64,000 nt of DNA from a virus, in IMG/VR virus record IMGVR_UViG_3300045988_001753, positions 1 to 64,000 of that record. One strand, given 5' to 3'. Of this stretch, positions 5,739-42,601 are shown piece by piece (position 1 is the stretch's first letter; the number at the start of each line of letters is the position of its first letter). Below the pieces are notes generated by a model that worked only from the letters and a program-made list of their open reading frames with translations, searched no databases and was not told where the DNA came from. The translations under genes were made by a program, and so were the position numbers.

Positions 5739-6059
5739 ATGGGATGGATTATATTAGGTATAGTGTTCCTTGTAGTGACCATTTGGTCACTCAGGGGCAC
5801 TACTTTTGCTGAATACCACTATCAGAATAGAGTGGATGAGCATCATGTTGCTGTATGGATGCTAATTATAGCTTTTATAATCTATTGTATTCCTATTATA
5901 GGTATCATGGCTTTCATAGCATACCATATATGGTTCTCCATACTTGCCAGTAGAAAGCCCCATCATAGCTATGAATATTTGATTATAGAGCTATCCAAGG
6001 AGAATGTATTACATAGGATATTGGGCACTATTGCCTGCTATTTAACAAAAGAAGTATGA
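5739..6059 (+). CDS. membrane protein (106 aa, about 3 TM segments)
   Basis: Hydrophobic stretches WIILGIVFLVVTIW, VAVWMLIIAFIIYCIPIIGIMAFIAY and HIWFSILA. Confidence 0.5.
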   Translation: MGWIILGIVFLVVTIWSLRGTTFAEYHYQNRVDEHHVAVWMLIIAFIIYCIPIIGIMAFIAYHIWFSILASRKPHHSYEYLIIELSKENVLHRILGTIACYLTKEV

Positions 6060-6529
6060 AACAGAGAGTATTCAACATACTCATCTCCTTTGCAGTAGGA
6101 GTACTTGGAGCAATTCAAGTACATTCCTACTTGAAGGAAGATGAACCACCTGAAATAGAGGTGGTACACATAGTTAATGAGGAGCAACCAGACTTCTTCA
6201 GTAAATCACCTCAAGAAGGCTTGATGGAAGCATTAGAATATTATGGGGTTAAACATCCTCAGATAGTCTATGCACAAGCTGTACTTGAAACTGGTCATTT
6301 TAAGTCAGACTTATGTCTGAATGGTAATAATCTGTTTGGCTTATACAATAGCAAGAAACACAGGTATCACACATTTGACCATTGGACTGAAAGCATAATT
6401 GCATATCTTAACTATGTGCAATATAGATACAAACCTCCGAATGACTACTATGAGTTTTTATCAGATATAGGGTATGCAGAAGACCCTGACTACATTAACA
6501 AATTAAAAGAAATTGTAAGTAGAAAATGA
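6056..6529 (+). CDS. membrane-anchored glucosaminidase-domain peptidoglycan hydrolase (endolysin candidate)
   Basis: N-terminal TM segment VFNILISFAVGVLGAIQV. FlgJ/glucosaminidase-type signature AQAVLETGHFKSDLCLNGNNLFGL with downstream HTFDHWTESI. Confidence 0.7.
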   Translation: MKQRVFNILISFAVGVLGAIQVHSYLKEDEPPEIEVVHIVNEEQPDFFSKSPQEGLMEALEYYGVKHPQIVYAQAVLETGHFKSDLCLNGNNLFGLYNSKKHRYHTFDHWTESIIAYLNYVQYRYKPPNDYYEFLSDIGYAEDPDYINKLKEIVSRK

Positions 6530-6612
6530 CAAGAGAAGAAGTGAATAGGTTGGCTTTATCTAAGATAGACAAGACCAAGTACCTTATCTTAGAGCTTATC
6601 ACTGGGATGGGT
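6526..6612 (+). CDS. SF2 (SNF2/DEAD-like) helicase, exon 1 (29 codons)
   Basis: ATG overlaps the upstream stop (ATGA). It reads MTREEVNRLALSKIDKTKYLILELITGMG, then K and a stop in the unspliced DNA. The Walker A motif is truncated after GMGK. Confidence 0.65.
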
Positions 6613-6663
6613 AAATAAAATAAGTATTTTACTTATCCTGTTGTATATATTAAATGTTATTTA

Positions 6664-6671
6664 TATCTTTG
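6664..6671 (+). promoter_or_regulatory. Bacteroidota-type -7 promoter box TATCTTTG (TAnnTTTG) inside the intron
   Basis: TATCTTTGCA lies 22 nt upstream of the endonuclease ATG at 6694. The spacing and core match the box at 35099. Confidence 0.45.
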
Positions 6672-6693
6672 CATAATTAATAAATTATTGATT

Positions 6694-7494
6694 ATGGGAA
6701 GATATAGAGAAATTACAAATGAAATTGTAGAGTTAGCAAATCAAGGATTAACTGCTACCGAAATAGCAAAAATTCTTGGAGTATGGAGACAGACAGTTTA
6801 TTATAAACTAAAGAAAATAGACAGGAGTATTCCTAACTATCATAATTCTTTGAAATTTGATAATACAGTATTTGATAATATAGATACAGAAGAGAAAGCT
6901 TACTGGTTAGGTTTTCTGATGGCTGATGGATATGTTAGTAAAAATTCAAATACTGTGGAATTAAGTCTAAAAGGCGATGATAGTGACCATTTAAATAAAT
7001 ATAATAATTTTATAAAGAATACTCAATCTATTAAATTTGGTAAAATAGTAAATAAAGGTAAAGAATACAGTAGGTGTAGGTGTACTGTAACTGACAATCA
7101 TTTTCATGATAGATTAGTAGAGTTGGGGTGCCTACCACAAAAATCTTTAACATTGAAGTTTCCTAATAAAAATATATTTGCAGAAGAGAGTCTTATTAGA
7201 CATTTTATAAGAGGGTATGTAGATGGAGATGGCTGTCTTAGCTATACAAAGACAGGTAGATTAGTTGTAGAAATAATGGGAACTAAAGAATTTCTAGGAG
7301 AAATAATATCTTTATATCCTGATTATTTTAAGAACACTTACCATAAAGATAAAAGAAGGCTATCTTCAAATACATATTGTATATCTTGTAGTTGTGCTAA
7401 TGCAGATAAATTTGCAAGTATTCTCTATGATAAATCTAATATATACTTGGATAGAAAATATAAAAGATTTGCCGTGTTAAGAAGAAATTCTTAA
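6694..7494 (+). CDS. LAGLIDADG homing endonuclease with N-terminal HTH
   Basis: Two LAGLIDADG motifs, YWLGFLMADGYVS and IRGYVDGDGCLS. N-terminal HTH-like LTATEIAKILGVWRQTVYY. The track start at 6688 is TTG; the first ATG is at 6694. Confidence 0.85.
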   Translation: MGRYREITNEIVELANQGLTATEIAKILGVWRQTVYYKLKKIDRSIPNYHNSLKFDNTVFDNIDTEEKAYWLGFLMADGYVSKNSNTVELSLKGDDSDHLNKYNNFIKNTQSIKFGKIVNKGKEYSRCRCTVTDNHFHDRLVELGCLPQKSLTLKFPNKNIFAEESLIRHFIRGYVDGDGCLSYTKTGRLVVEIMGTKEFLGEIISLYPDYFKNTYHKDKRRLSSNTYCISCSCANADKFASILYDKSNIYLDRKYKRFAVLRRNS

Positions 7495-7723
7495 TATAAT
7501 CACAGGGCAAAAACGGTGAAAGCTGAGATGCTAATACCGTGCTAACTAATTAAATTACGAAAGGTTAATTAGTAGTGTAGAGCGTAGGTCTTGAATAAAT
7601 ATAATAGACCCAAGAGTGTCCTGCATCTTAATAGGTAGAGCTAAAGATGAAAATGTACGCCGAGCTTACATTAAATGAAATGTAAGAACTGAGAGATAAA
7701 AAGCTCTTAGGATAACATAACTG

Positions 7724-8776
7724 AAAACTCGAATAGCAATAGACCTCATTAATCATATATGTGATAGGGTATTCAGGAATGATGAAAGCCCTACTACTAT
7801 ACTTATTCTTGTAGCTAAGACTGTGCACAAGCAGACTTGGAAGGATGAGATTGAGAAATGGGGAGGTATCAAGTCTGACTATATTACCATTGAATGCTAT
7901 GAGTCACTAAAGAACTATGAGAACTCATACTTTGATGTAGTAGTGGCAGATGAGATGCAGCATTTGTCAGAAGCAAGAATTGATGTATTGGAGACTATCC
8001 ATATCAATGAGTCTTTCATTGGATTGTCTGCCACTATTAAGAGAGACATGAGGGATTATTTCATTTACAACCACAAGGCTGAGGTCATTAAGTGTGGTCT
8101 CAAGGAAGCTGTAGAAGATGAAGTATTACCTGAGCCTACAGTATATCTACTGCCCTTGTCTTTAGACAAGTCTAATTATACCTATAAGGTTAAGAAGTTT
8201 GGTCGTGATATAATCACCACTCAGAAAGGTTGTTATGATAGTATCTCTTCACTTATAGAGTGGTACAAGAATAAGTACTTTAACTCAAGAAATGAGAGGA
8301 TAAAGAACTTATGGCTTTCAACAGCAGGCAAAAGGCTGAAGTGGTGTGCTGAACAGAAGGAAGCCCTTGTACTATCTCTTCTTGACAAGTTCAGGAATTA
8401 CAAGACTTTGACTTTCTGTAGTAGTATTGAACAGTCAGAGAGGTTAGGTAAATATAATATCACCTCGAAGAATAAGGCTTCAGTGAAGAACCTTGAGATG
8501 TTTAATCTTAATAAGATTAAACATATTACTGCCTGTAATATACTCAATGAAGGTGTGAACTTGACTAATTGTAGGATAGGCATATTCTGCAACTTGAATA
8601 GTTCGGAGATTGTAGTAAAGCAAAGAGTTGGTAGAATACTTAGACACAAATCTCCTATTATCATCATACCTTATTTCAAGGATACAAGGGAAGAAGAACT
8701 TGTACAGAAGATGATAGAGGAGTACTCTGAGGATTCTATCATTAGTGTTGATAGTATTAATGACATTAAGCTATGA
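7724..8776 (+). CDS. SF2 (SNF2/DEAD-like) helicase, exon 2
   Basis: The frame is open from 7721. It reads KTRIAIDLINHI...TTILILVAKT (motif Ia), VVVADEMQHL (motif II, DExx) and KQRVGRILR (motif VI). The track ORF begins at GTG 7823 only because there is no upstream ATG. Confidence 0.7.
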   Translation, partial: KTRIAIDLINHICDRVFRNDESPTTILILVAKTVHKQTWKDEIEKWGGIKSDYITIECYESLKNYENSYFDVVVADEMQHLSEARIDVLETIHINESFIGLSATIKRDMRDYFIYNHKAEVIKCGLKEAVEDEVLPEPTVYLLPLSLDKSNYTYKVKKFGRDIITTQKGCYDSISSLIEWYKNKYFNSRNERIKNLWLSTAGKRLKWCAEQKEALVLSLLDKFRNYKTLTFCSSIEQSERLGKYNITSKNKASVKNLEMFNLNKIKHITACNILNEGVNLTNCRIGIFCNLNSSEIVVKQRVGRILRHKSPIIIIPYFKDTREEELVQKMIEEYSEDSIISVDSINDIKL

Positions 8777-35128: not shown

Positions 35129-38100
35129 ATGAGTTGTTTAATTATAACACCAGAAATTAGAGAATTAGCTAAGAAGTTTCCTAATGAAACAGAGCAATCA
35201 ATACTTAACTTGGTTGGACTGTGGCAGGAAAAGAATAATAAGTCTGTTGAGGATATTCCATTAGGTAGTGAACTCAATGATTTTATTAAGGAGCTGAGAA
35301 GTAGTGAGGCTACTGAACAGCTTGATGAGGCACTTAGCAGTTCTTTTAATACTCCAAGGATTACTTCTGTTGAGGAACAGCAAAAGGTGGACTTACTCTT
35401 TGACCCAAGAACAAGAAGAGATAGAGTGACACTTATTGCAAGATTCTTCAGTAATGAAGTTGATAATGCCTTGCAGGAAATGACTGATTCTTTGAAGAGA
35501 AGAATTGATGATGCCAGTGGTGTAGAGAAGGAAGAATTACAGGCTGAGCTTAATAGCTTGGATAGATTCTCTGCTATAAAGAAGTACACTCCTGCTGGTA
35601 TATTCAAGAGAGTAGCTAACATCTTCAATTCTTATATACAAGATACAGAAGAGGGCAGAATACAGCAAGAACTTAATGCAATCAATTCTATGAGAGGTGC
35701 AGATAAGTTCTCTGATGAGCAGAAATTAGAAGCTGCCAAGAAGAAAGCTGCTTATAAGAATCAGGAGTATAAGAAGATAGTTGATGACCCTTATGTCTAT
35801 AAGGCTCTTGCTGAGGAAGCAAGTACTTTACTTGTAATGACTGAGGGTATTAGGATAGACCCTAACTACATTGCACCTGCTGATGCAAACCTCAATGATG
35901 ATGACCCTGATGGTAACAGTGAGGTAGATAATGAAGCAGAGGATTGGAGACAAGAAGAGGCTTATAAGGATGGATGGATGACTAATTTCAGACAGGTAAG
36001 TTCACATGAGTCTCTGTCACAAGCTGTAAGAAAAGTAATCAGACAAGTACCTAAACTTGACTATAGAGGCAAGTATGAAAAGGATGATTTAGGTTTCACA
36101 AGATACCTTGATGCTGACTATGTTCATGCTACTTTCATTGACAAGTTAAGGAACATGATTAACTCTGATGATATGCTTCCTTTGATGCAGGATTTGCAAA
36201 GAATCAAGCCTTGGGTTAAGCAAGTAACCAAGTTACTTCAAGGTGATGAGACTTTGTTCTCTCAATTCTACCAAGACTTCAGGAAGGACTTTATGCCTTA
36301 CTGGATTCAAAAGAAGAAGATGATGCCTGATGGTACTTTCAAGATGGAAACTATTGCCATCAATAAGCCTGAAGGTGTGTATTACCTCCTTGATGCTTGG
36401 AGAGATAACTATGAGAATGGAGTACAGCTTGATGATGATAGTGTATATGAGAAGAATGGGGAAATAAACAAGGATAATGCAGCTAAAGGTTTACAATGGA
36501 CTGAGACATTGAACAATATGTTCCAGAACCTTGATACAGAATCCAGACTTCAACTCTTAGAGAGAGAAGATGTATGGAATACCATAATGAAGTTACTTCA
36601 TATGTTAGGTATTGATGCCAATCCTTCTGTATTGAAGACTGCATTAACTGATATAAAGACAGCTCCAGGTATCACATTTACTGACCCAATTATGCTTCTT
36701 TTACCACAATTGAATGTTATATTCAGTGGTATTAAGAAAGGTGAAGTCAAGTCTGAGACAAGGGAGGATGGTACTGAGAAGAGAGGAGACCTTATCAATA
36801 CTTTTGGCTCTGCTTACAATATGATTGCAAGCATGATGGCAGAAGTTACTGAGGATGCTATTGAAAGTAGTGTCAGAGAGAATGATAAGTCTTACTATTC
36901 TCATGTTACTCCTAACTACTTAGGTAAACTTATTAAAAATCTCAAGAATGTTATGAATGACAAGGAGAGATTTGAACAGTTTATGCAGACTGAGTTCAAG
37001 GATTATGAGTGGTTCTTTAAGGATGGTCATTGGAGAAATGACTGGCTAAGACAGCTTGCAGAGTCTGATGAATTGAGAAGAGGTCTTAACCATAAAGTAG
37101 TATTGAACTCTGATAAGGTAGATTATACTAATTGGGATGATTTGGATTATACTTTGGCTCTTCTTACAGAATATTGGGGAGACCCTGATTCTGCAAAGTC
37201 AAGTATAAAGTATGCTTGGTATCATGTTCCTATTCTCTCAGATAGCCCTTCTGCTGAGTTTATCAGATTCAGAAAGTACACAACAGGTGATGTACTTGAT
37301 GAAAATGGTAAGAAGAGAACCTATGATGATGTTATTCTTGATAAGTTGGTAGACTTGGTTAATCAAGAGTATGACAGAATTATGCTGGTTAGGGAAAGAG
37401 ATGAGGCTTATCAGAGTGGAGATAAGAGTGTAGAACCTATTGCCAACTATGATATTGTCAGAAAGAAAGATGGGAGTATAAAGAGTATGGGAGGTGCAGA
37501 ATTTAAGTTCCTTCCTGCACTTAACAACCTCAGATATGACAATGGAGAGGCATTCATTGATAGGCTAAGCAGACTTAAATCCAAGGGTACTGGTGCTGAA
37601 CTTAGGAACTTTCTAAGAACTACTCTTAATGACATGATGGAAGATGGTTTTGAACAGACCTATAGAGATTGGATGAGGGTAGGACTTTTGGATGAGCTTC
37701 CTAATGGCAAGTACAAGTATCTTCCTTTTGAGGGTCAGTCCAAGCAGAATGCAATAACTGCAAAGGCACTTATCAAGGCTAAAGATGCCTTAGGTTCATT
37801 GTGGAATACCAATATGGAACTGATGCTTAGAGCCTATAACAATAATAGTGCTTTTGATAGTAGGGAAGCCAATAACCTGATGGAGCAGATTAAGAATTTG
37901 CTGACAGATAAGGCAACAAGAGGTGAGATGGAATTGAAAGATGCTCAGTCAATCTCAAGAAGTCTGTTTGTTAAGAACAATGCTAAGGATGCACTTAGGG
38001 AATACTATTGGAACAGTAAGTTAGCTACTTCACAGATTATCCAGCTTACTACTACTGACCTTGCCTTCTATAAGAACCTTGAGGACTTTCAGAAGAGATA

Positions 38101-41100
38101 TAAGGAGGTTCATGCTCCTGCCCTTAGACTGAATACTAAGGCTACTTATAAAGGTGAGAGAATTGGTAGGGACTGGGAAAGAACCATCTACTTGAAGGAT
38201 GATGAGATAGTATCTTCTGTACTTGAAGACATCAAGACTGTACTTGATGAAAGGGTTAGAAGAAATGAAATGACCAAGATAGACAGAGATAATATCATCA
38301 GCAAGTTTAGAAATGTGAATGTAGCAGATGCTCAGGCATATAGAAGTTTGAGTTCCTATAGGGCAATACTTGGCATGTCAGGTCAGTGGACAGATGATAT
38401 GGAGCAGGCATATAACAACTTCAAGAATGGAGATTGGAATATTAAAGACTTCAATATCATTTGGCAGACTAAGAAGCCTTATGTTTATACACAAGTCAAT
38501 AATAACAGTGGCATTGAAGGTCATACTGGAATTAAGACTCCTGTACAGCATAAGAACTCAGAGTTCCTATTACTTGCTATGCACGAACTAATTGCTGGTC
38601 CTTTAGGAAGGTCAGGTAAGCTGAAAGCCATAAATAAGTTTATGGAGGATAATCAGATTGATGTAGTTCAGTTTGAATCTACTACTAAGGTTGGAAAACA
38701 AGGTGTAATAGATTTGAATGATGTTAATACAGAGGCTGATGTAATCCAAAGACTTAAAGATACCACAGGTATTGGATTTGGTAATGAGAATCCTAATGTA
38801 GTACATAAGGTATCTTATGAAGATTATGGTATTCAGACTGCAACTCCTGAACATGCTATTGATGCAGTTCAGTTAGTAGGTACTCAGATTAGAAAGTTAA
38901 TTACTGCTGACATCTCTGATGACACAATCATTGAGGTTAATGGTAAGAAGATGACTAAGAAAGAGTGGCTTGACCTGTATAATGCTATCAATACAGAGAA
39001 TATTCTTCAAGCATTTGCTGATGTAGATAAGATATTCAAAGACCCAAAGAAGGTAGAGGAAATCTTACTTGAAGAGATAAGAGGTAATCAAAGATATGGT
39101 ATGGATATGATGAGGGCTTGTACTCTTGATGAGAACAATAACTTCAATATACCTCTCTTTGACCCTGTGCAATCTCAAAGAGTACAGACACTTCTTAATA
39201 GTGTAATCAAGAGTAGAATCACTAAACAGAAGATTAGAGGAGGAGCTTTAATTCAGGTGTCTGATTATGGCTTAACTGACCAACTGAGTATTGTATTCAA
39301 AGATAAGAATGGCAATCCTTTGAATTACGAACTTTACAAAAAGAAGTATCCTAATGCTACAAGAGAAAGCTATGAAGAATTTGTCAAGAATGCCCAAAAG
39401 GAAGGTAAGTTGTCTATCATGTATCTTGAGTGCTATATGCCTGCATATAGTAGAGAGTTTTATGAGCCTCTCATGGACCCAAATACTCACCAGCTTGATG
39501 TAACTAAACTTCCTGAGGATTTGAGAAAGTTGATTGGATATAGAGTTCCAACAGAGGATAAGTACTCAATGGCTCCTCTGTATATTAAGGGATTCCTTCC
39601 TCAACAGAATGGTTCTGCAATCATGCTTCCTGCTGAGATTACTACTCTATCAGGTTCTGACTTTGATGTGGATAAGATGTATATCATGTTGCCAGAGTTT
39701 AGAATACTGGATAGGTATAGAATCAAGGATGCTTGGGATGACTTCTATACTGACCCAGCTAATGCTGACATTGTAGAAGAAATTGATAGGAACATAGGAA
39801 TTGCTTTTGAAGACTATCAAAGAAAACACCCTGAGGATGAGCTTGATATAGATGATTATATTGAGTTTGTTCAAGACCAAGGTGTCAGAAAGTACCAGTT
39901 CTCTGAAACTGCAAGGGACAGATTCAAGGAGTGGTTCAAGTCAAGAAAAAAGCAATACTCTCTGGGTAAGGGTAAGATTGTAAAGGTAAAGTATGACTTC
40001 AACAAGTCTCCACAGGAGAATAGTCTTGAGGCAAGAAATAACTTGCTGATAGATATGATGTATGGAGTCCTGACTAATGCAGATACAGCTTCAAAGATTC
40101 TTAACCCAGGTGGTTTTGACTATCAGAAGAAGTCTGCAAGAATAATGACTATTCTCAATGATTCTTATGAGAGTGATTTGGTTAAGGCTCTAAATGAAGG
40201 TGGTGTTAAGTTTAATAAGACTATTAAAAGGGCAGGAAAGGAAATAAAAGCCCCAATATCTTCCTACCTTTTTGACTTGCCATTAGAGTTATCTAATGAG
40301 GAGAGAGAGGAAAGGAAGAAGAAAGGGGAGCCTTTCATAAGTCTTACTGAATTAGCAGAGAAAACAAAGGTCAAAATGGACCCATTATCACCAAGAACTC
40401 AAGTAATGTTACATCAACAGAACATGACTGGTGCTAAGTTGATTGGTATTTATGCCAACCATAATGCAAACCATGCTTTGATGCAACATACTCAGTTGGC
40501 TTTGGATGAAGAAAATGGCTCATTTGTATTGAATGGAAAGAGACTTACATCTCTACATGATATTATGAATGGTGACAAGGAATTTATCTCAAAGAATAAT
40601 GCTGGATTCTTGGCTGCTTCTGTGGACAATGTTAAAGACCCTGTGCTTGCAGCACTTAATCAGAATACTTTCACTGCTGATGCTTCTATGCTTCTTTCAA
40701 GATTAGGTTATAATCCTATTGAGATAGGTCTGCTAATGATGCAGCCTATAGTTCAAGAGATTACTCAGACCTATTTTAGAGAGAGTAGAGAAGGTAAAGG
40801 TAAAGATACCATCATTGATGAAGTATTGGATAAGTATAAGGAGAAGGCTGCTCTTAATAATGACTTGACTTATGATAACTACAAGAATAATAGCTTCTAC
40901 ATTGAAGAGCTTGCAGATAACATAATGCTTGCTAAGGAAGCTGTTACTGACAGGTCTCAGACTTCTGATTTCAGAAAGATTGAGTTCTATCAGAAACAAG
41001 TTGCAGTTGGATATTTGTTCAAGAGAATTATGAACTCTGCTGATGCTTTGGGACAGTTAGTACAGGCTACAAGGTCTGATACCCAAGGAGGTGCTGCTGG

Positions 41101-42601
41101 TCCTACTATTGCAGATACAGAGTTAAAGATGCAGAAAGTGAAAGACCTGTTAGACCAAATAGAGAATAATGACAAGTTCCCATTGAAGAATGCCAATGTA
41201 ATACTTGATGGTCTGTTATCAGACAATCCTGACACTGACACTCTAAGAGAAAGACTATTGTCAGCTCCTCTCCCTTTCTTACAGGCTTTCTATACTCTTG
41301 GCTTGCAGAAGACAGAAGAAATGTTAGGGTCTTATTTCCCTCAATATACTGAATCATTCAGGACTGTAATTGATGACCTTAGAGACATGACTAAGACTGG
41401 TAAGTTGAATGTAAAGACTATGAATAGTATTTATAATGACTTGCTTGCCTATATCATGTCAAAGAATGGATTCTTTGGTTCTGAATTGATTGTAAACCCT
41501 GACTCAGAAGTAGGTGATATTATTGTAACTTCCTCTGATAAGAGAAAGGATTTCATCAATAACTTCCCTGAATACTTCAAGAGAGTGGTTACAGATAATG
41601 AGGATATAGCTGACCTTGAATTTATTAAGAGGCTCAAGGTAATTAGGGCAAATGACAGTAATCCTGTAGACACAGTAGTGTTTAAGAATGTGGGTCAGTT
41701 AAGTCCTACTTTGAGAGAAAGATATATGAGGGATTGGGCATCTCTATTATATATGAGTAACCCAGAAGCTCAGAAACTTGCTCTTAATCTATTCAGATAT
41801 AGCTATTATAGAAATGGCTTTGCATTTGGACCTTCAACCTTCATCCATTTGGCACCTGTGGCAGTGAGAAATGCTATCCCAGAGTACATAAGTACATTGA
41901 GAACTCTCTTGTCATCAAGTGATGATTATAGTCAATTTGTAGACCAATATGTCTATAACCACTTGGATAACAGAAAGTTGGTTCCTGAAATCCCTGATAC
42001 AGCCTCTGTCCAATTCATAGGAGAGGATAATGAAGTTAAGGATGAAGTTACATTTGTAATTGATGATAATGCTACCTTTGGAGATAAGAAAGTTATCAAG
42101 AAAAGGATAGATACTCCTGATGGTCCTGCTTATGACTTCTTTAGGTATATAGGTAAGAGAATTAGAGGAAACTATGTCTATTACAAACTGACTTCATTAG
42201 GTACTGAACAAACTAATGTTGCAACCTATGAAAGGATTGAACCATTAGGCTTCAGAAACAGCTTTATTGAATATGAATATGGTAAGGATGTGGAAGAGAT
42301 GGAAACTGTAATTGATAAGAACAGGAAAGATTATGACCCTTATGCAGATACATTGTCAAGATTTGACCTTGGAGATGCTGAGGTTGATTATGATTCTATG
42401 CCTGACTATCAAGATATGCCTCAAGAGTATTGGGATTCTATTCCACAAGTAGATACTGATGCTTTCCAACAGGTATATGGTACTCCTCTTGATACTTCTG
42501 CTCCAAAGGCTGATGATGTAACAGCTATTCAACCTAATACAGAGTATAAGGATGAGAATGGTGATAGTATTTGTGGTGCTCCAACATTATATAGTTTATA
42601 A
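35129..42601 (+). CDS. giant virion-packaged RNA polymerase (crAss-like vRNAP, two-barrel/QDE-1-like)
   Basis: Uninterrupted 2490-aa ORF. Metal-binding DxDxD motif LSGSDFDVDKMY (39659..39673). The size and context match crAss-like phage vRNAP genes. Confidence 0.7.
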   Translation: MSCLIITPEIRELAKKFPNETEQSILNLVGLWQEKNNKSVEDIPLGSELNDFIKELRSSEATEQLDEALSSSFNTPRITSVEEQQKVDLLFDPRTRRDRVTLIARFFSNEVDNALQEMTDSLKRRIDDASGVEKEELQAELNSLDRFSAIKKYTPAGIFKRVANIFNSYIQDTEEGRIQQELNAINSMRGADKFSDEQKLEAAKKKAAYKNQEYKKIVDDPYVYKALAEEASTLLVMTEGIRIDPNYIAPADANLNDDDPDGNSEVDNEAEDWRQEEAYKDGWMTNFRQVSSHESLSQAVRKVIRQVPKLDYRGKYEKDDLGFTRYLDADYVHATFIDKLRNMINSDDMLPLMQDLQRIKPWVKQVTKLLQGDETLFSQFYQDFRKDFMPYWIQKKKMMPDGTFKMETIAINKPEGVYYLLDAWRDNYENGVQLDDDSVYEKNGEINKDNAAKGLQWTETLNNMFQNLDTESRLQLLEREDVWNTIMKLLHMLGIDANPSVLKTALTDIKTAPGITFTDPIMLLLPQLNVIFSGIKKGEVKSETREDGTEKRGDLINTFGSAYNMIASMMAEVTEDAIESSVRENDKSYYSHVTPNYLGKLIKNLKNVMNDKERFEQFMQTEFKDYEWFFKDGHWRNDWLRQLAESDELRRGLNHKVVLNSDKVDYTNWDDLDYTLALLTEYWGDPDSAKSSIKYAWYHVPILSDSPSAEFIRFRKYTTGDVLDENGKKRTYDDVILDKLVDLVNQEYDRIMLVRERDEAYQSGDKSVEPIANYDIVRKKDGSIKSMGGAEFKFLPALNNLRYDNGEAFIDRLSRLKSKGTGAELRNFLRTTLNDMMEDGFEQTYRDWMRVGLLDELPNGKYKYLPFEGQSKQNAITAKALIKAKDALGSLWNTNMELMLRAYNNNSAFDSREANNLMEQIKNLLTDKATRGEMELKDAQSISRSLFVKNNAKDALREYYWNSKLATSQIIQLTTTDLAFYKNLEDFQKRYKEVHAPALRLNTKATYKGERIGRDWERTIYLKDDEIVSSVLEDIKTVLDERVRRNEMTKIDRDNIISKFRNVNVADAQAYRSLSSYRAILGMSGQWTDDMEQAYNNFKNGDWNIKDFNIIWQTKKPYVYTQVNNNSGIEGHTGIKTPVQHKNSEFLLLAMHELIAGPLGRSGKLKAINKFMEDNQIDVVQFESTTKVGKQGVIDLNDVNTEADVIQRLKDTTGIGFGNENPNVVHKVSYEDYGIQTATPEHAIDAVQLVGTQIRKLITADISDDTIIEVNGKKMTKKEWLDLYNAINTENILQAFADVDKIFKDPKKVEEILLEEIRGNQRYGMDMMRACTLDENNNFNIPLFDPVQSQRVQTLLNSVIKSRITKQKIRGGALIQVSDYGLTDQLSIVFKDKNGNPLNYELYKKKYPNATRESYEEFVKNAQKEGKLSIMYLECYMPAYSREFYEPLMDPNTHQLDVTKLPEDLRKLIGYRVPTEDKYSMAPLYIKGFLPQQNGSAIMLPAEITTLSGSDFDVDKMYIMLPEFRILDRYRIKDAWDDFYTDPANADIVEEIDRNIGIAFEDYQRKHPEDELDIDDYIEFVQDQGVRKYQFSETARDRFKEWFKSRKKQYSLGKGKIVKVKYDFNKSPQENSLEARNNLLIDMMYGVLTNADTASKILNPGGFDYQKKSARIMTILNDSYESDLVKALNEGGVKFNKTIKRAGKEIKAPISSYLFDLPLELSNEEREERKKKGEPFISLTELAEKTKVKMDPLSPRTQVMLHQQNMTGAKLIGIYANHNANHALMQHTQLALDEENGSFVLNGKRLTSLHDIMNGDKEFISKNNAGFLAASVDNVKDPVLAALNQNTFTADASMLLSRLGYNPIEIGLLMMQPIVQEITQTYFRESREGKGKDTIIDEVLDKYKEKAALNNDLTYDNYKNNSFYIEELADNIMLAKEAVTDRSQTSDFRKIEFYQKQVAVGYLFKRIMNSADALGQLVQATRSDTQGGAAGPTIADTELKMQKVKDLLDQIENNDKFPLKNANVILDGLLSDNPDTDTLRERLLSAPLPFLQAFYTLGLQKTEEMLGSYFPQYTESFRTVIDDLRDMTKTGKLNVKTMNSIYNDLLAYIMSKNGFFGSELIVNPDSEVGDIIVTSSDKRKDFINNFPEYFKRVVTDNEDIADLEFIKRLKVIRANDSNPVDTVVFKNVGQLSPTLRERYMRDWASLLYMSNPEAQKLALNLFRYSYYRNGFAFGPSTFIHLAPVAVRNAIPEYISTLRTLLSSSDDYSQFVDQYVYNHLDNRKLVPEIPDTASVQFIGEDNEVKDEVTFVIDDNATFGDKKVIKKRIDTPDGPAYDFFRYIGKRIRGNYVYYKLTSLGTEQTNVATYERIEPLGFRNSFIEYEYGKDVEEMETVIDKNRKDYDPYADTLSRFDLGDAEVDYDSMPDYQDMPQEYWDSIPQVDTDAFQQVYGTPLDTSAPKADDVTAIQPNTEYKDENGDSICGAPTLYSL

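Follow-up and report, generated by a model that had tools for sequence, protein, structure and literature searches.

Within the window (the whole stretch of phage DNA analysed, 64,000 nucleotides in length), the gene for the SF2 replication helicase is divided into two exons by an insert that carries an open reading frame (ORF) of its own (Table 1). As previously described, ATG 6526 overlaps the upstream stop codon in an ATGA. The short first ORF does read ...LILELITGMGK, although it comprises 30 codons, with its TAA at 6616-6618, rather than the 29 first reported; 29 would be left after splicing. Further downstream, the helicase reading frame opens at 7721 (after the TAA at 7718-7720) and contains no start codon before GTG 7823, as had been noted, and the part of exon 2 upstream of this GTG is conserved in sequence as well as open. 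The proposed joining of 6612 to 7724 is indeed in frame and restores motif I: the combined segments (6526..6612 + 7724..8776) encode a 379-aa SF2 helicase that reads ELITGMG|KTRIAIDL across the TGMG|KT junction, with VVADEMQH and QRVGRILR further downstream and with the Pfam domains ResIII and Helicase_C. The predicted spliced junction consists of the exon 1 end ...GGGATGGGT and the exon 2 start AAAACTCGA, and the intron-less form of the insertion site reads ...ATAACTGGAATGGGTAAGACCAAAGTAGCA... The helicase is kept across crAss-like phages, with 88 of 89 phage records covering at least 80% of the protein.

Table 1. Features of the interrupted helicase gene and its insert, in window coordinates (RNA elements and splice sites are predicted)
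Feature	Position	Strand	Remarks
Helicase exon 1	6526..6612	+	29 codons, ending ...ACT GGG ATG GGT (TGMG); collinear with intron-less homologues
Divergent exon stretch, co-conversion-like tract	6548..6612, continuing 7724-7733	+	relative to intron-less relatives
Putative intron	6613..7723	+	1,111 nt; first bases AAAUAA, last bases ...GAUAACAUAACUG; an exact addition when compared with L001, L002 and ~60 IMG/VR relatives
P1 5' strand	6610..6616	+	GGU|AAAU; 5' splice site after U6612; complementary to 7467-7473
P1 loop (L1)	6617..7466	+	leader 6617-6693 (AT-rich, GC ~0.14) and most of the endonuclease ORF
Putative homing endonuclease ORF	6694..7494	+	266 aa; N-terminal HTH and two LAGLIDADG motifs (YWLGFLMADGYV, FIRGYVDGDGCL)
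P1 3' strand / internal guide sequence	7467..7473	+	AUUUGCC; G7471 pairs with U6612
P2 hairpin	7477..7494	+	UUAAGAA-GAAA-UUCUUAA; includes the ORF stop codon; covariation
P3 5' strand, J3/4 and P4-P5-P6-P6a domain	7503..7576	+	RNAalifold, pair counts; P3 5' strand 7503-7509
P4	7513-18/7535-40	+	
P5	7521-23/7530-32	+	
P6	7541-43/7574-76	+	
P6a	7546-53/7565-72	+	
Catalytic core	7577..7661	+	J6/7 GUA; P3 3' strand 7617-23; J8/7 AAAAUG
P7	7580-86/7656-61	+	G7580, bulged A7581 and GCGUA 7582-86, paired with UACGCC 7656-61
P7.1	7587-91/7606-10	+	
P8	7624-29/7644-49	+	covariance model alignment to Twort covers P7, P8 and J8/7
3' domain	7662..7723	+	P9 7665-72/7679-86; P9.1 7689-95/7704-10; tail GAUAACAUAACUG, terminal G7723
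Helicase exon 2	7724..8776	+	starts AAA ACT (KT); 350 codons and stop

That the gene is interrupted by an insert was borne out by the suggested alignment with intron-less helicase homologues, since those of bajarodcaudo virus 1 (93% at the amino acid level), cr85_1 (79%) and ~60 IMG/VR contigs (up to 98%) continue without a break across the junction. The helicase of 6526..8776 is thereby confirmed as one gene, cut within its Walker A codons between Gly and Lys. Given that ~60 close relatives have the gene uninterrupted, 6613..7723 can be delimited exactly as an insert of 1,111 bp, and the interruption is not a chance finding. The junction slides by 3 nt, with AAA at both sides, and only 6612|7724 combines an exon U with an intron G; the group I boundary rule invoked in the preliminary description thus holds (U6612 and G7723), as does the remark that the insert is more AT-rich than its surroundings (GC 0.285 versus 0.37 for the window). 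Related phages have an intein in the same helicase, at motif II.

The ORF within the insert had been identified as a double-motif LAGLIDADG gene, and this is upheld by Pfam (LAGLIDADG_3, 2e-8; HTH_7, 1e-5), by its match to phrog_4645 'endonuclease' (8e-52) and by alignment, in which both motifs (LGFLMADGY and IRGYVDGDGC, each with an acidic residue) are conserved. Endonuclease homologues in sister introns share 35-57% identity. A PDB sequence search with the endonuclease returned weak HTH matches only, and no LAGLIDADG structure. By these sequence features, the product would be a monomeric two-motif LAGLIDADG homing endonuclease.

RNA fold and family of the insert

Relatives of the final ~260 nt of the insert occur in 142 phage records and on at least 120 IMG/VR contigs. 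Copies of this RNA family are always located at the 3' end of gene-splitting inserts, and copies without an ORF also break genes precisely. The structure proposed here was first drawn by hand on the same 37 member sequences on which pairing was later scored, and 92.5% of cells are paired in it, against 31-43% with the partners slid. Among these 37 members, compensatory change is found at 44 of 59 pairs, P3/P7 pseudoknot included; P3 is paired to 98%, covarying at 4 of 5 pairs, and P7 to 100%, covarying at 2 pairs. RNAalifold independently finds P3, P4, P5, P6, P6a, P7.1, P8, P9 and P9.1, in agreement for all nested helices. The stem-loop-rich RNA noticed earlier at 7495..7723 is therefore structured and covarying, although it begins at 7467, within the 3' end of the ORF.

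The predicted P1 helix comprises 7 bp (6610-16/7467-73), of which only three involve exon bases, with a U6612·G7471 wobble. The same pairing is present in Walker A members and closes 7-bp hairpins in the ORF-less relatives L055 and L117, ORF-less members having only 5-9 nt in the P1 loop. In other members, exon and guide change together at the predicted splice sites (GGAGGU/GCCUCC, GAAGCU/GGUUUC and GGGGU/GCCCU). When 5' splice sites were sought automatically, from guide pairing combined with an open frame, false positives were too many, and only sites with motif or domain continuity were kept. Since 6610-6616 pairs with 7467-7473, the endonuclease ORF sits in the P1 loop, its last codons encoding P1' and P2. 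The 81 nt at 6613..6693, once considered as ribozyme core, are not core and belong to the P1 loop. The UUU at 7468-70 of the guide can also pair with the first AAA of exon 2 (P10).

Within P7, the G7582-C7660 pair is invariant in 37 of 37 members, A7581 is unpaired (A or C in the family), and the pair flanking the bulge covaries between G-C and A-U (19:18). Such a P7, bulged and with a G-C pair that never varies among the members, is what a guanosine-binding site should look like, and we predict it to be one. P7.1, between P7 and P3', is one covarying hairpin to which some members add a second hairpin within its loop, and it is because of this extra hairpin that the intron is provisionally called IA-like. 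The 3' end reads GAUAACA-N(2-6)-G in each of the 37 members, and the window copy preserves the complete set of family helices as well as all invariant core positions. The modelled fold thus supports a group I topology for the RNA of the insert, with P1 U·G, P3/P7 pseudoknot, P4-P6, bulged P7, P7.1, P8 and P9.

The Rfam group I covariance model (RF00028), recommended in the preliminary description, gave no match at E<=1 over 6400-8000, at E<=10 over 7480-7740 (the 261-nt core) or in the whole window. We take this for a false negative, since the positive control (Twort phage introns) was found at 64-101 bits while none of five other family members was. Because RF00028 misses the family, the absence of a group I core cannot be judged by Rfam alone. 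RF00028 specifies P7 at the sequence level, and gaps in its seed are documented (PMC11878797). A covariance model built on the 3' half of the family RNA (R1) scores 144 bits on the window, the best of all its matches, and also matches introns I2 and I3 of Twort orf142, group I introns whose self-splicing is experimentally proven, at full model length (33.5 and 31.9 bits; E 1.7e-5 and 3.9e-5, roughly calibrated), with the alignment stopping at the Twort 3' splice site. The GenBank record of the Twort gene states group I introns, and Rfam confirms them. A sequence-only nhmmer profile of the family misses the Twort introns, and the link was found by the structure-aware model only. The P4-P6 sequences and two central P7 pairs differ (GACUA/UAGUC in Twort versus GCGUA/UACGC in the window), and it is for this reason that RF00028 and nhmmer fail to connect the two.

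Interpretation of the insert

Taken together, the fold model and the family links support reading the insert as a group I-type intron. We consider it very probable that 6613..7723 is a mobile, possibly IA-like group I intron with a LAGLIDADG gene in its P1 loop, inserted in the Walker A codons of an SF2 (ResIII/SNF2-type) helicase gene. Selfish elements of this kind are known; here the RNA belongs to a family that is missed by the standard Rfam model. Self-splicing, endonuclease activity and the endonuclease target are what we infer from these data. In the pre-mRNA, the exon end GGU and the intron AAAU would pair with the guide AUUUGCC (U6612·G7471), and a free guanosine, held at the P7 G-C pair beside bulged A7581, would attack after U6612. 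The guide UUU would next pair with the AAA of exon 2 (P10) while G7723 takes the same pocket, and ligation of the exons would give ...GGU AAA ACU... (TGMGKT) and the 379-aa helicase.

Presumably, the endonuclease cuts intron-less helicase alleles of co-infecting phages, and repair would copy the intron plus flanking exon sequence into the cut allele. In comparison with the intron-less relative L130, a tract of 75 nt holds 20 of the 51 mismatches present over 1,140 nt (Fisher p = 3e-12), and this clustering of exon divergence at the junction suggests that the intron arrived by homing, and recently. The helicase intron is absent from all 72 related helicase loci searched. The exact junction 18-mer, used to look for the same allele elsewhere, occurs at 2 viral and 91 metagenome loci; these were rejected as chance matches, as neither intron nor helicase is present there.

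The insert might instead be a group I relic that does not splice or depends on a helper (e.g., maturase activity of the LAGLIDADG protein), leaving the helicase inactive or scarce in this phage. Splicing is predicted from sequence, P1 has three exon pairs only, and an allele unique among the 72 relatives, with a junction 18-mer not in related DNA, could reflect a recent and possibly harmful event. We nevertheless regard a relic as improbable, since all family helices and invariant core positions are intact in a copy that is the top match of R1, exon 2 remains conserved and open before GTG 7823, and the helicase is conserved in crAss-like phages.

Still less probable is a free-standing homing endonuclease gene that has left the helicase in pieces, as a 30-aa peptide and a protein started at GTG 7823, with no RNA splicing. 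The ORF list does give two separate ORFs, and free-standing endonucleases have made split genes in T4-like phages. This reading was rejected because the break falls inside the P-loop, so that the downstream piece begins 33 codons past KT and loses motifs I and Ia, because the ORF is followed by 260 nt of conserved, covarying RNA that always stops at the exon boundary, and because ORF-less RNA copies also interrupt genes precisely. Least probable of all is another intervening element or an assembly artefact: although an intein is known at motif II of this helicase, an intein here is rejected by the in-frame TAA 3 nt after the junction and the lack of a Hint domain match, a group II intron by the ends (AAAUA...ACUG rather than GUGYG...AY), an ORF that encodes a LAGLIDADG enzyme and no reverse transcriptase, and the lack of an Rfam group II match, and an artefact is opposed by an insert exact to the base and by sister copies in independent assemblies.

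Walker A sites and comparison with known elements

The GGT|AAR Walker A site is shared by family members inserted in genes for unrelated ATPases, which to date comprise an SF2 helicase, a RecD-like SF1 helicase, an AAA+ ATPase and an AAA_24 ATPase. These occurrences may belong to a large, as yet unmodelled group I branch, in part of which the guide UUGCC and a co-evolving LAGLIDADG enzyme match Walker A codons that are almost universal (GGU|AAR), so that the element could hop from one P-loop ATPase gene to another, unrelated one, and among phages whose hosts are distant from each other (Bacteroidota, Bacillota), the helicase copy in the window being one recent landing; we hold the arguments for this wider view to be evenly balanced. 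The shared site would offer a concrete, testable route by which intron and endonuclease reach new genes.

For annotation, the locus would become one spliced 379-aa helicase instead of a 30-aa ORF and a truncated, GTG-started ORF, and the same correction would apply, in many phage genomes, to split genes for ATPases, RecD-like helicases and terminase large subunits, and to what appear to be genes for tape-measure proteins and anaerobic ribonucleotide reductases. Because this common family escapes RF00028, phage introns are probably undercounted in scans based on that model, and the alignment and covariance model obtained here could seed a new one.

Among the closest known systems are the group I introns of Staphylococcus phage Twort orf142, of which I2 is reportedly the subgroup IA2 ribozyme of crystal structure PDB 1Y0Q (Golden et al. 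2005). The window intron and the Twort orf142 introns are alike in predicted helix order, in having an additional hairpin located between P7 and P3', in the bulged P7 with its G-C pair, in a J8/7 of GAAnAUn type and in a near-identical 3' domain (P7'-UGAAC-P9-AGAAG-P9.1-GUAACAUAAUUG). Unlike the window intron, with its ORF in the P1 loop, the Twort introns lack an endonuclease ORF and are each shorter than 300 nt.

The T4 introns of td, nrdB and nrdD (I-TevI-III) are likewise phage group I (IA) introns in genes of nucleotide and DNA metabolism, are optional among relatives, and home by endonuclease with co-conversion of flanking exons. Their endonucleases are of GIY-YIG or HNH type and lie in P6 or P9 loops, whereas the window ORF encodes a LAGLIDADG protein with an extra HTH, in the P1 loop. 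Inteins reportedly occur in the P-loops of phage ATPases (Kelley et al. 2016, mBio) and resemble the window element as selfish elements that land at the conserved Walker A coding sequence of unrelated ATPases; they splice at the protein level, whereas the window element would be an RNA intron.

In crAss-like phages, core genes of replication and structure, among them an ATPase (ATP_43b), have been described as carrying group I introns, and a LAGLIDADG 'intron-encoded endonuclease' is noted there (Yutin et al. 2021, PMC7886860). In the passages of that study drawn on here, the introns are reported for the Delta and Zeta groups and were recognised via protein domains only, without RNA structure, and the helicase site is not among the listed insertion sites (PMC7886860). 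The window likewise belongs to a crAss-like phage, from the gut, although it is Steigviridae-like, its nearest named relative being Kahnovirus cr85_1. The intron of the cr6_1 ATPase belongs to the same RNA family as the window intron and occupies the same Walker A position.

A helicase gene interrupted at its Walker A codons

The ATG of the helicase gene (6526) shares ATGA with the stop codon of an upstream glucosaminidase-domain gene and opens a short ORF, MTREEVNRLALSKIDKTKYLILELITGMGK, which is ended by TAA at 6616-6618. Downstream, the helicase frame opens at 7721, right after a TAA at 7718-7720, and its first start codon is a GTG at 7823. Joining 6612 to 7724, as put forward in the preliminary description, restores an in-frame protein of 379 aa with a perfect motif I (TGMGKT) and the motifs VVADEMQH and QRVGRILR, for which Pfam matches (ResIII and Helicase_C) and PHROG DNA-helicase families were found. 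Because AAA is present on both sides, the position of the junction is ambiguous by up to 3 nt, and only 6612/7724 leaves the U at the exon end and the G at the insert end that had been read there as a group I boundary. The insert of 1,111 nt has a GC content of 0.285 against 0.37 for the window, in line with its reported AT-richness. The endonuclease ORF is in frame with exon 1, and the only stop codon between them is the TAA that ends the short ORF; the frame then stays open through 6619-7494.

The window belongs to a crAss-like phage, with bajarodcaudo virus 1 and Kahnovirus cr85_1 as the nearest records. The joined helicase aligns in one piece to 88 phage records, and the DNA of the two closest records in the alignment reads ...ACTGGGATGGGT/AAAACT... 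continuously, with no insert. Intron-less homologues, the comparison proposed earlier, therefore run uninterrupted across the junction. In about 60 of 72 related IMG/VR loci (75-98% amino acid identity) the gene is a single block of 1,137 nt, and the RNA family described below was found in none of these 72 loci. A search of viral and metagenome collections with the exact 5' junction 18-mer returned chance matches only, none of them at a locus with the intron or the helicase. These alignments show that 6613-7723 is an insertion and not the native gene layout. Both the original observation and its interpretation as a group I intron, for which splicing is predicted, were right in substance.

The RNA family and its group I core

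BLASTN detects relatives of the insert's terminal ~260 nt (7462-7723), at 66-78% identity, in 142 phage records, comprising Staphylococcus, Clostridioides and Bacillus phages, other crAss-like phages and a cyanophage. These matches stop at the final bases of the insert, and in annotated records the match sits between two parts of one gene (RecD-like helicase, ATPase or terminase large subunit). At least 120 IMG/VR contigs with the conserved core motif were retrieved, and 37 compact family members were aligned with the window. Other conserved phage genes interrupted by the family are anaerobic ribonucleotide reductase-like (loci L054 and L038, with insertion sites apparently one codon apart), tape-measure-like (L081) and terminase large subunit (L006) genes.

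Coordinates of the modelled intron RNA in the window and of Walker A junctions in other loci of the family
Feature	5' strand, or exon 1 end	3' strand, or exon 2 start	Remark
P1	6610-6616	7467-7473	U6612 opposite G7471
P2	7477-83	7488-94	
P3	7503-09	7617-23	
P4	7513-18	7535-40	
P5	7521-23	7530-32	
P6	7541-43	7574-76	
P6a	7546-53	7565-72	
J6/7	7577-79		GUA
P7	G7580, 7582-86	7656-61	A7581 bulged
P7.1	7587-91	7606-10	
P8	7624-29	7644-49	
J8/7	7650-55		AAAAUG
P9	7665-72	7679-86	
P9.1	7689-95	7704-10	
3' tail			GAUAACAUAACUG, last base G7723
L004	925	2071	
L005	1567	2652	cr6_1 ATPase intron
L051	414	1493	counted on intron-bearing strand
L055	2425	2680	
L117	6354	6624	counted on intron-bearing strand

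Across the alignment, standard pairs occupy 92.5% of cells, compared with 31-43% when partners are slid by 1-3 columns; compensatory changes occur in 44 of 59 pairs, and none of 500 shuffles reaches any of the observed measures. These counts support a P3/P7 pseudoknot, with P3 98% paired and four of its five pairs covarying; P7 is 100% paired, G-C and A-U alternating 19:18 in the pair that precedes the bulge and 29:8 in the third pair. RNAalifold, in which pseudoknots cannot be drawn, independently gives all nested helices, with P3 and P4 extended. As modelled, the RNA has several features of group I introns: the order of the helices, a J6/7 of 3 nt, J3/4 and J4/5 that are rich in A, and in P7 a bulge followed by an invariant G-C. 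A hairpin placed, as here, between P7 and P3' is a typical trait of subgroup IA. The stem-loop-rich RNA previously placed after the ORF hence proved to hold a conserved, covarying core, but it starts earlier, as P1' and P2 overlap the end of the ORF.

The Rfam group I model (RF00028), suggested as a check, gave no match at 6400-8000 (E<=1), in the whole window (gathering score) or at 7480-7740 (E<=10). This is not decisive, since Rfam reports no group I intron in other annotated loci of the family either, while all three orf142 introns of Staphylococcus phage Twort are detected as positive control at 64-101 bits; the model therefore works, yet is blind to this RNA family. P7 is given by sequence in the Rfam alignment (AGACUA with AUAGUC), and the window's family has GCGUA with UACGC. 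The Rfam seed has been described as incomplete and may miss phage variants (2025 study, PMC11878797).

A covariance model was built for the 3' half, beginning with J6/7 and running through the end of the intron. It scored 144 bits on the window and 136 and 118 bits on two Staphylococcus phage members (L007 and L006, respectively). The Twort orf142 introns, which are proven ribozymes, matched over the full model length, with 33.5 bits for I2 (E 1.7e-5) and 31.9 bits for I3 (E 3.9e-5), the E-values being only roughly calibrated. The alignment pairs P7, P8, J8/7, P9 and P9.1 and stops at the 3' splice site of Twort, GUAACAUAAUUG/AA; the I2 sequence was verified by a 100% BLAST match to AF132670. 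I2 and I3 were thus detected by the structure-aware model, whereas a sequence-only profile of the family had no match in Twort.

Guide sequence and endonuclease

In P1, GGU/AAAU pairs with AUUUGCC, and the guide UUU can also pair with the AAA at the start of exon 2 (P10), which accounts for the 3-nt ambiguity of the junction. The guide varies in step with the exon end, as in GGAGGU/ with GCCUCC and GAAGCU/ with GGUUUC (both anaerobic ribonucleotide reductase-like genes) and GGGGU/ with GCCCU (tape-measure-like gene), the splice sites of members in other genes being predictions backed by motif continuity. Because the P1 strands of ORF-less members (GGUAAUA with UAUUGCC) close a small hairpin, with a loop of 5 nt in L055 (254 nt) and 9 nt in L117 (269 nt), the 81-nt AT-rich leader and the endonuclease ORF of the window would lie inside the P1 loop (6617-7466). 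The final codons of the ORF (...K-R-F-A-V-L-R-R-N-S-stop) encode P1' (UUU GCC = Phe-Ala) and P2. A perfect 7-bp hairpin, AUAAGUA-UUU-UACUUAU, is located in the P1 loop at 6620-6636, just inside the 5' end of the intron.

The ORF of 266 aa has an N-terminal HTH and, as initially reported, two LAGLIDADG motifs, each with an acidic residue. Sister introns carry homologues at the same position (35-57% identity), which have in common a C-terminal ...YL(D/E/Q)RKY...FAV that overlaps the guide; a sequence search for a solved structure of the endonuclease found none. The Bacteroides -7 promoter box is TAnnTTTG, which TATCTTTG at 6664-6671, 23 nt upstream of the endonuclease ATG, fits, and this site could be an endonuclease promoter. 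In the sister intron of contig L121, the corresponding position holds TATCCTTG.

Insertion sites and mobility

Members of the family lie between the Walker A Gly and Lys codons (GGT/AAR) in at least four unrelated ATPase families, namely the SF2 helicase of the window, a RecD-like SF1 helicase (AAA_30) of Bacillus phage PJN02, an AAA+ ATPase of crAss-like cr6_1 and a relative, and an AAA_24 protein; a fifth gene with such a site has a weak AAA_5 match only. Pfam domains of the joined proteins are continuous across these junctions, and the guide UUGCC is present in all five tabulated loci. In the Delta and Zeta groups of crAss-like phages, protein domains have revealed group I introns that carry endonuclease genes, LAGLIDADG among them, and the interrupted genes include an ATPase (part of PMC7886860). 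That part of the account of crAss-like introns mentions neither the helicase site nor the RNA structure nor the Rfam blind spot. The window insert is a further example of an already known kind of element, and in our view the most interesting extension of the finding is that an unmodelled family of introns may target Walker A codons.

The intron is present in the window and absent from 72 relatives. Of 51 nucleotide differences from L130, a relative 98% identical, 20 are concentrated in CDS positions 23-97 (window 6548-6612 and 7724-7733), where divergence is about tenfold higher than elsewhere (27% vs 2.9%; Fisher p = 3e-12). The changes are mostly synonymous in exon 1 and turn KV into RI in exon 2, and the divergent tract is asymmetric about the intron, reaching ~65 nt into exon 1 and ~10 nt into exon 2. 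This pattern would be expected if homing had copied flanking exon from a diverged donor, and it looks like a co-conversion tract.

Contig L121, which matches window 35331-39285 at 94% identity, has an insert of 1,076 nt (reverse strand 5749-6824) with an RNA core 89% identical to that of the window and its own HTH-LAGLIDADG ORF. The insert interrupts a 2,490-aa ORF (window ORF 35129-42601) at window 38695/38696, ..AAGGTTGGT/AAACAAGG, and the empty site in the window is preceded by GGA instead of GGT (A for U). The helicase interrupted by the window's intron has other insertions in related phages. In two of them (L193 and L196, 1595-2500), an in-frame insert in motif II (ADE/C...GN/CQH) within a continuous 685-aa ORF looks like an intein. 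In another relative, L191 (3419-4311), the gene is split after ACNILNEG, in the motif V region, by ~890 nt, which may be an intron of another class or a free-standing endonuclease and to which neither Rfam nor our covariance model gave a match, and the 215-aa ORF therein resembles, by eye, HNH/NUMOD-type homing endonucleases.
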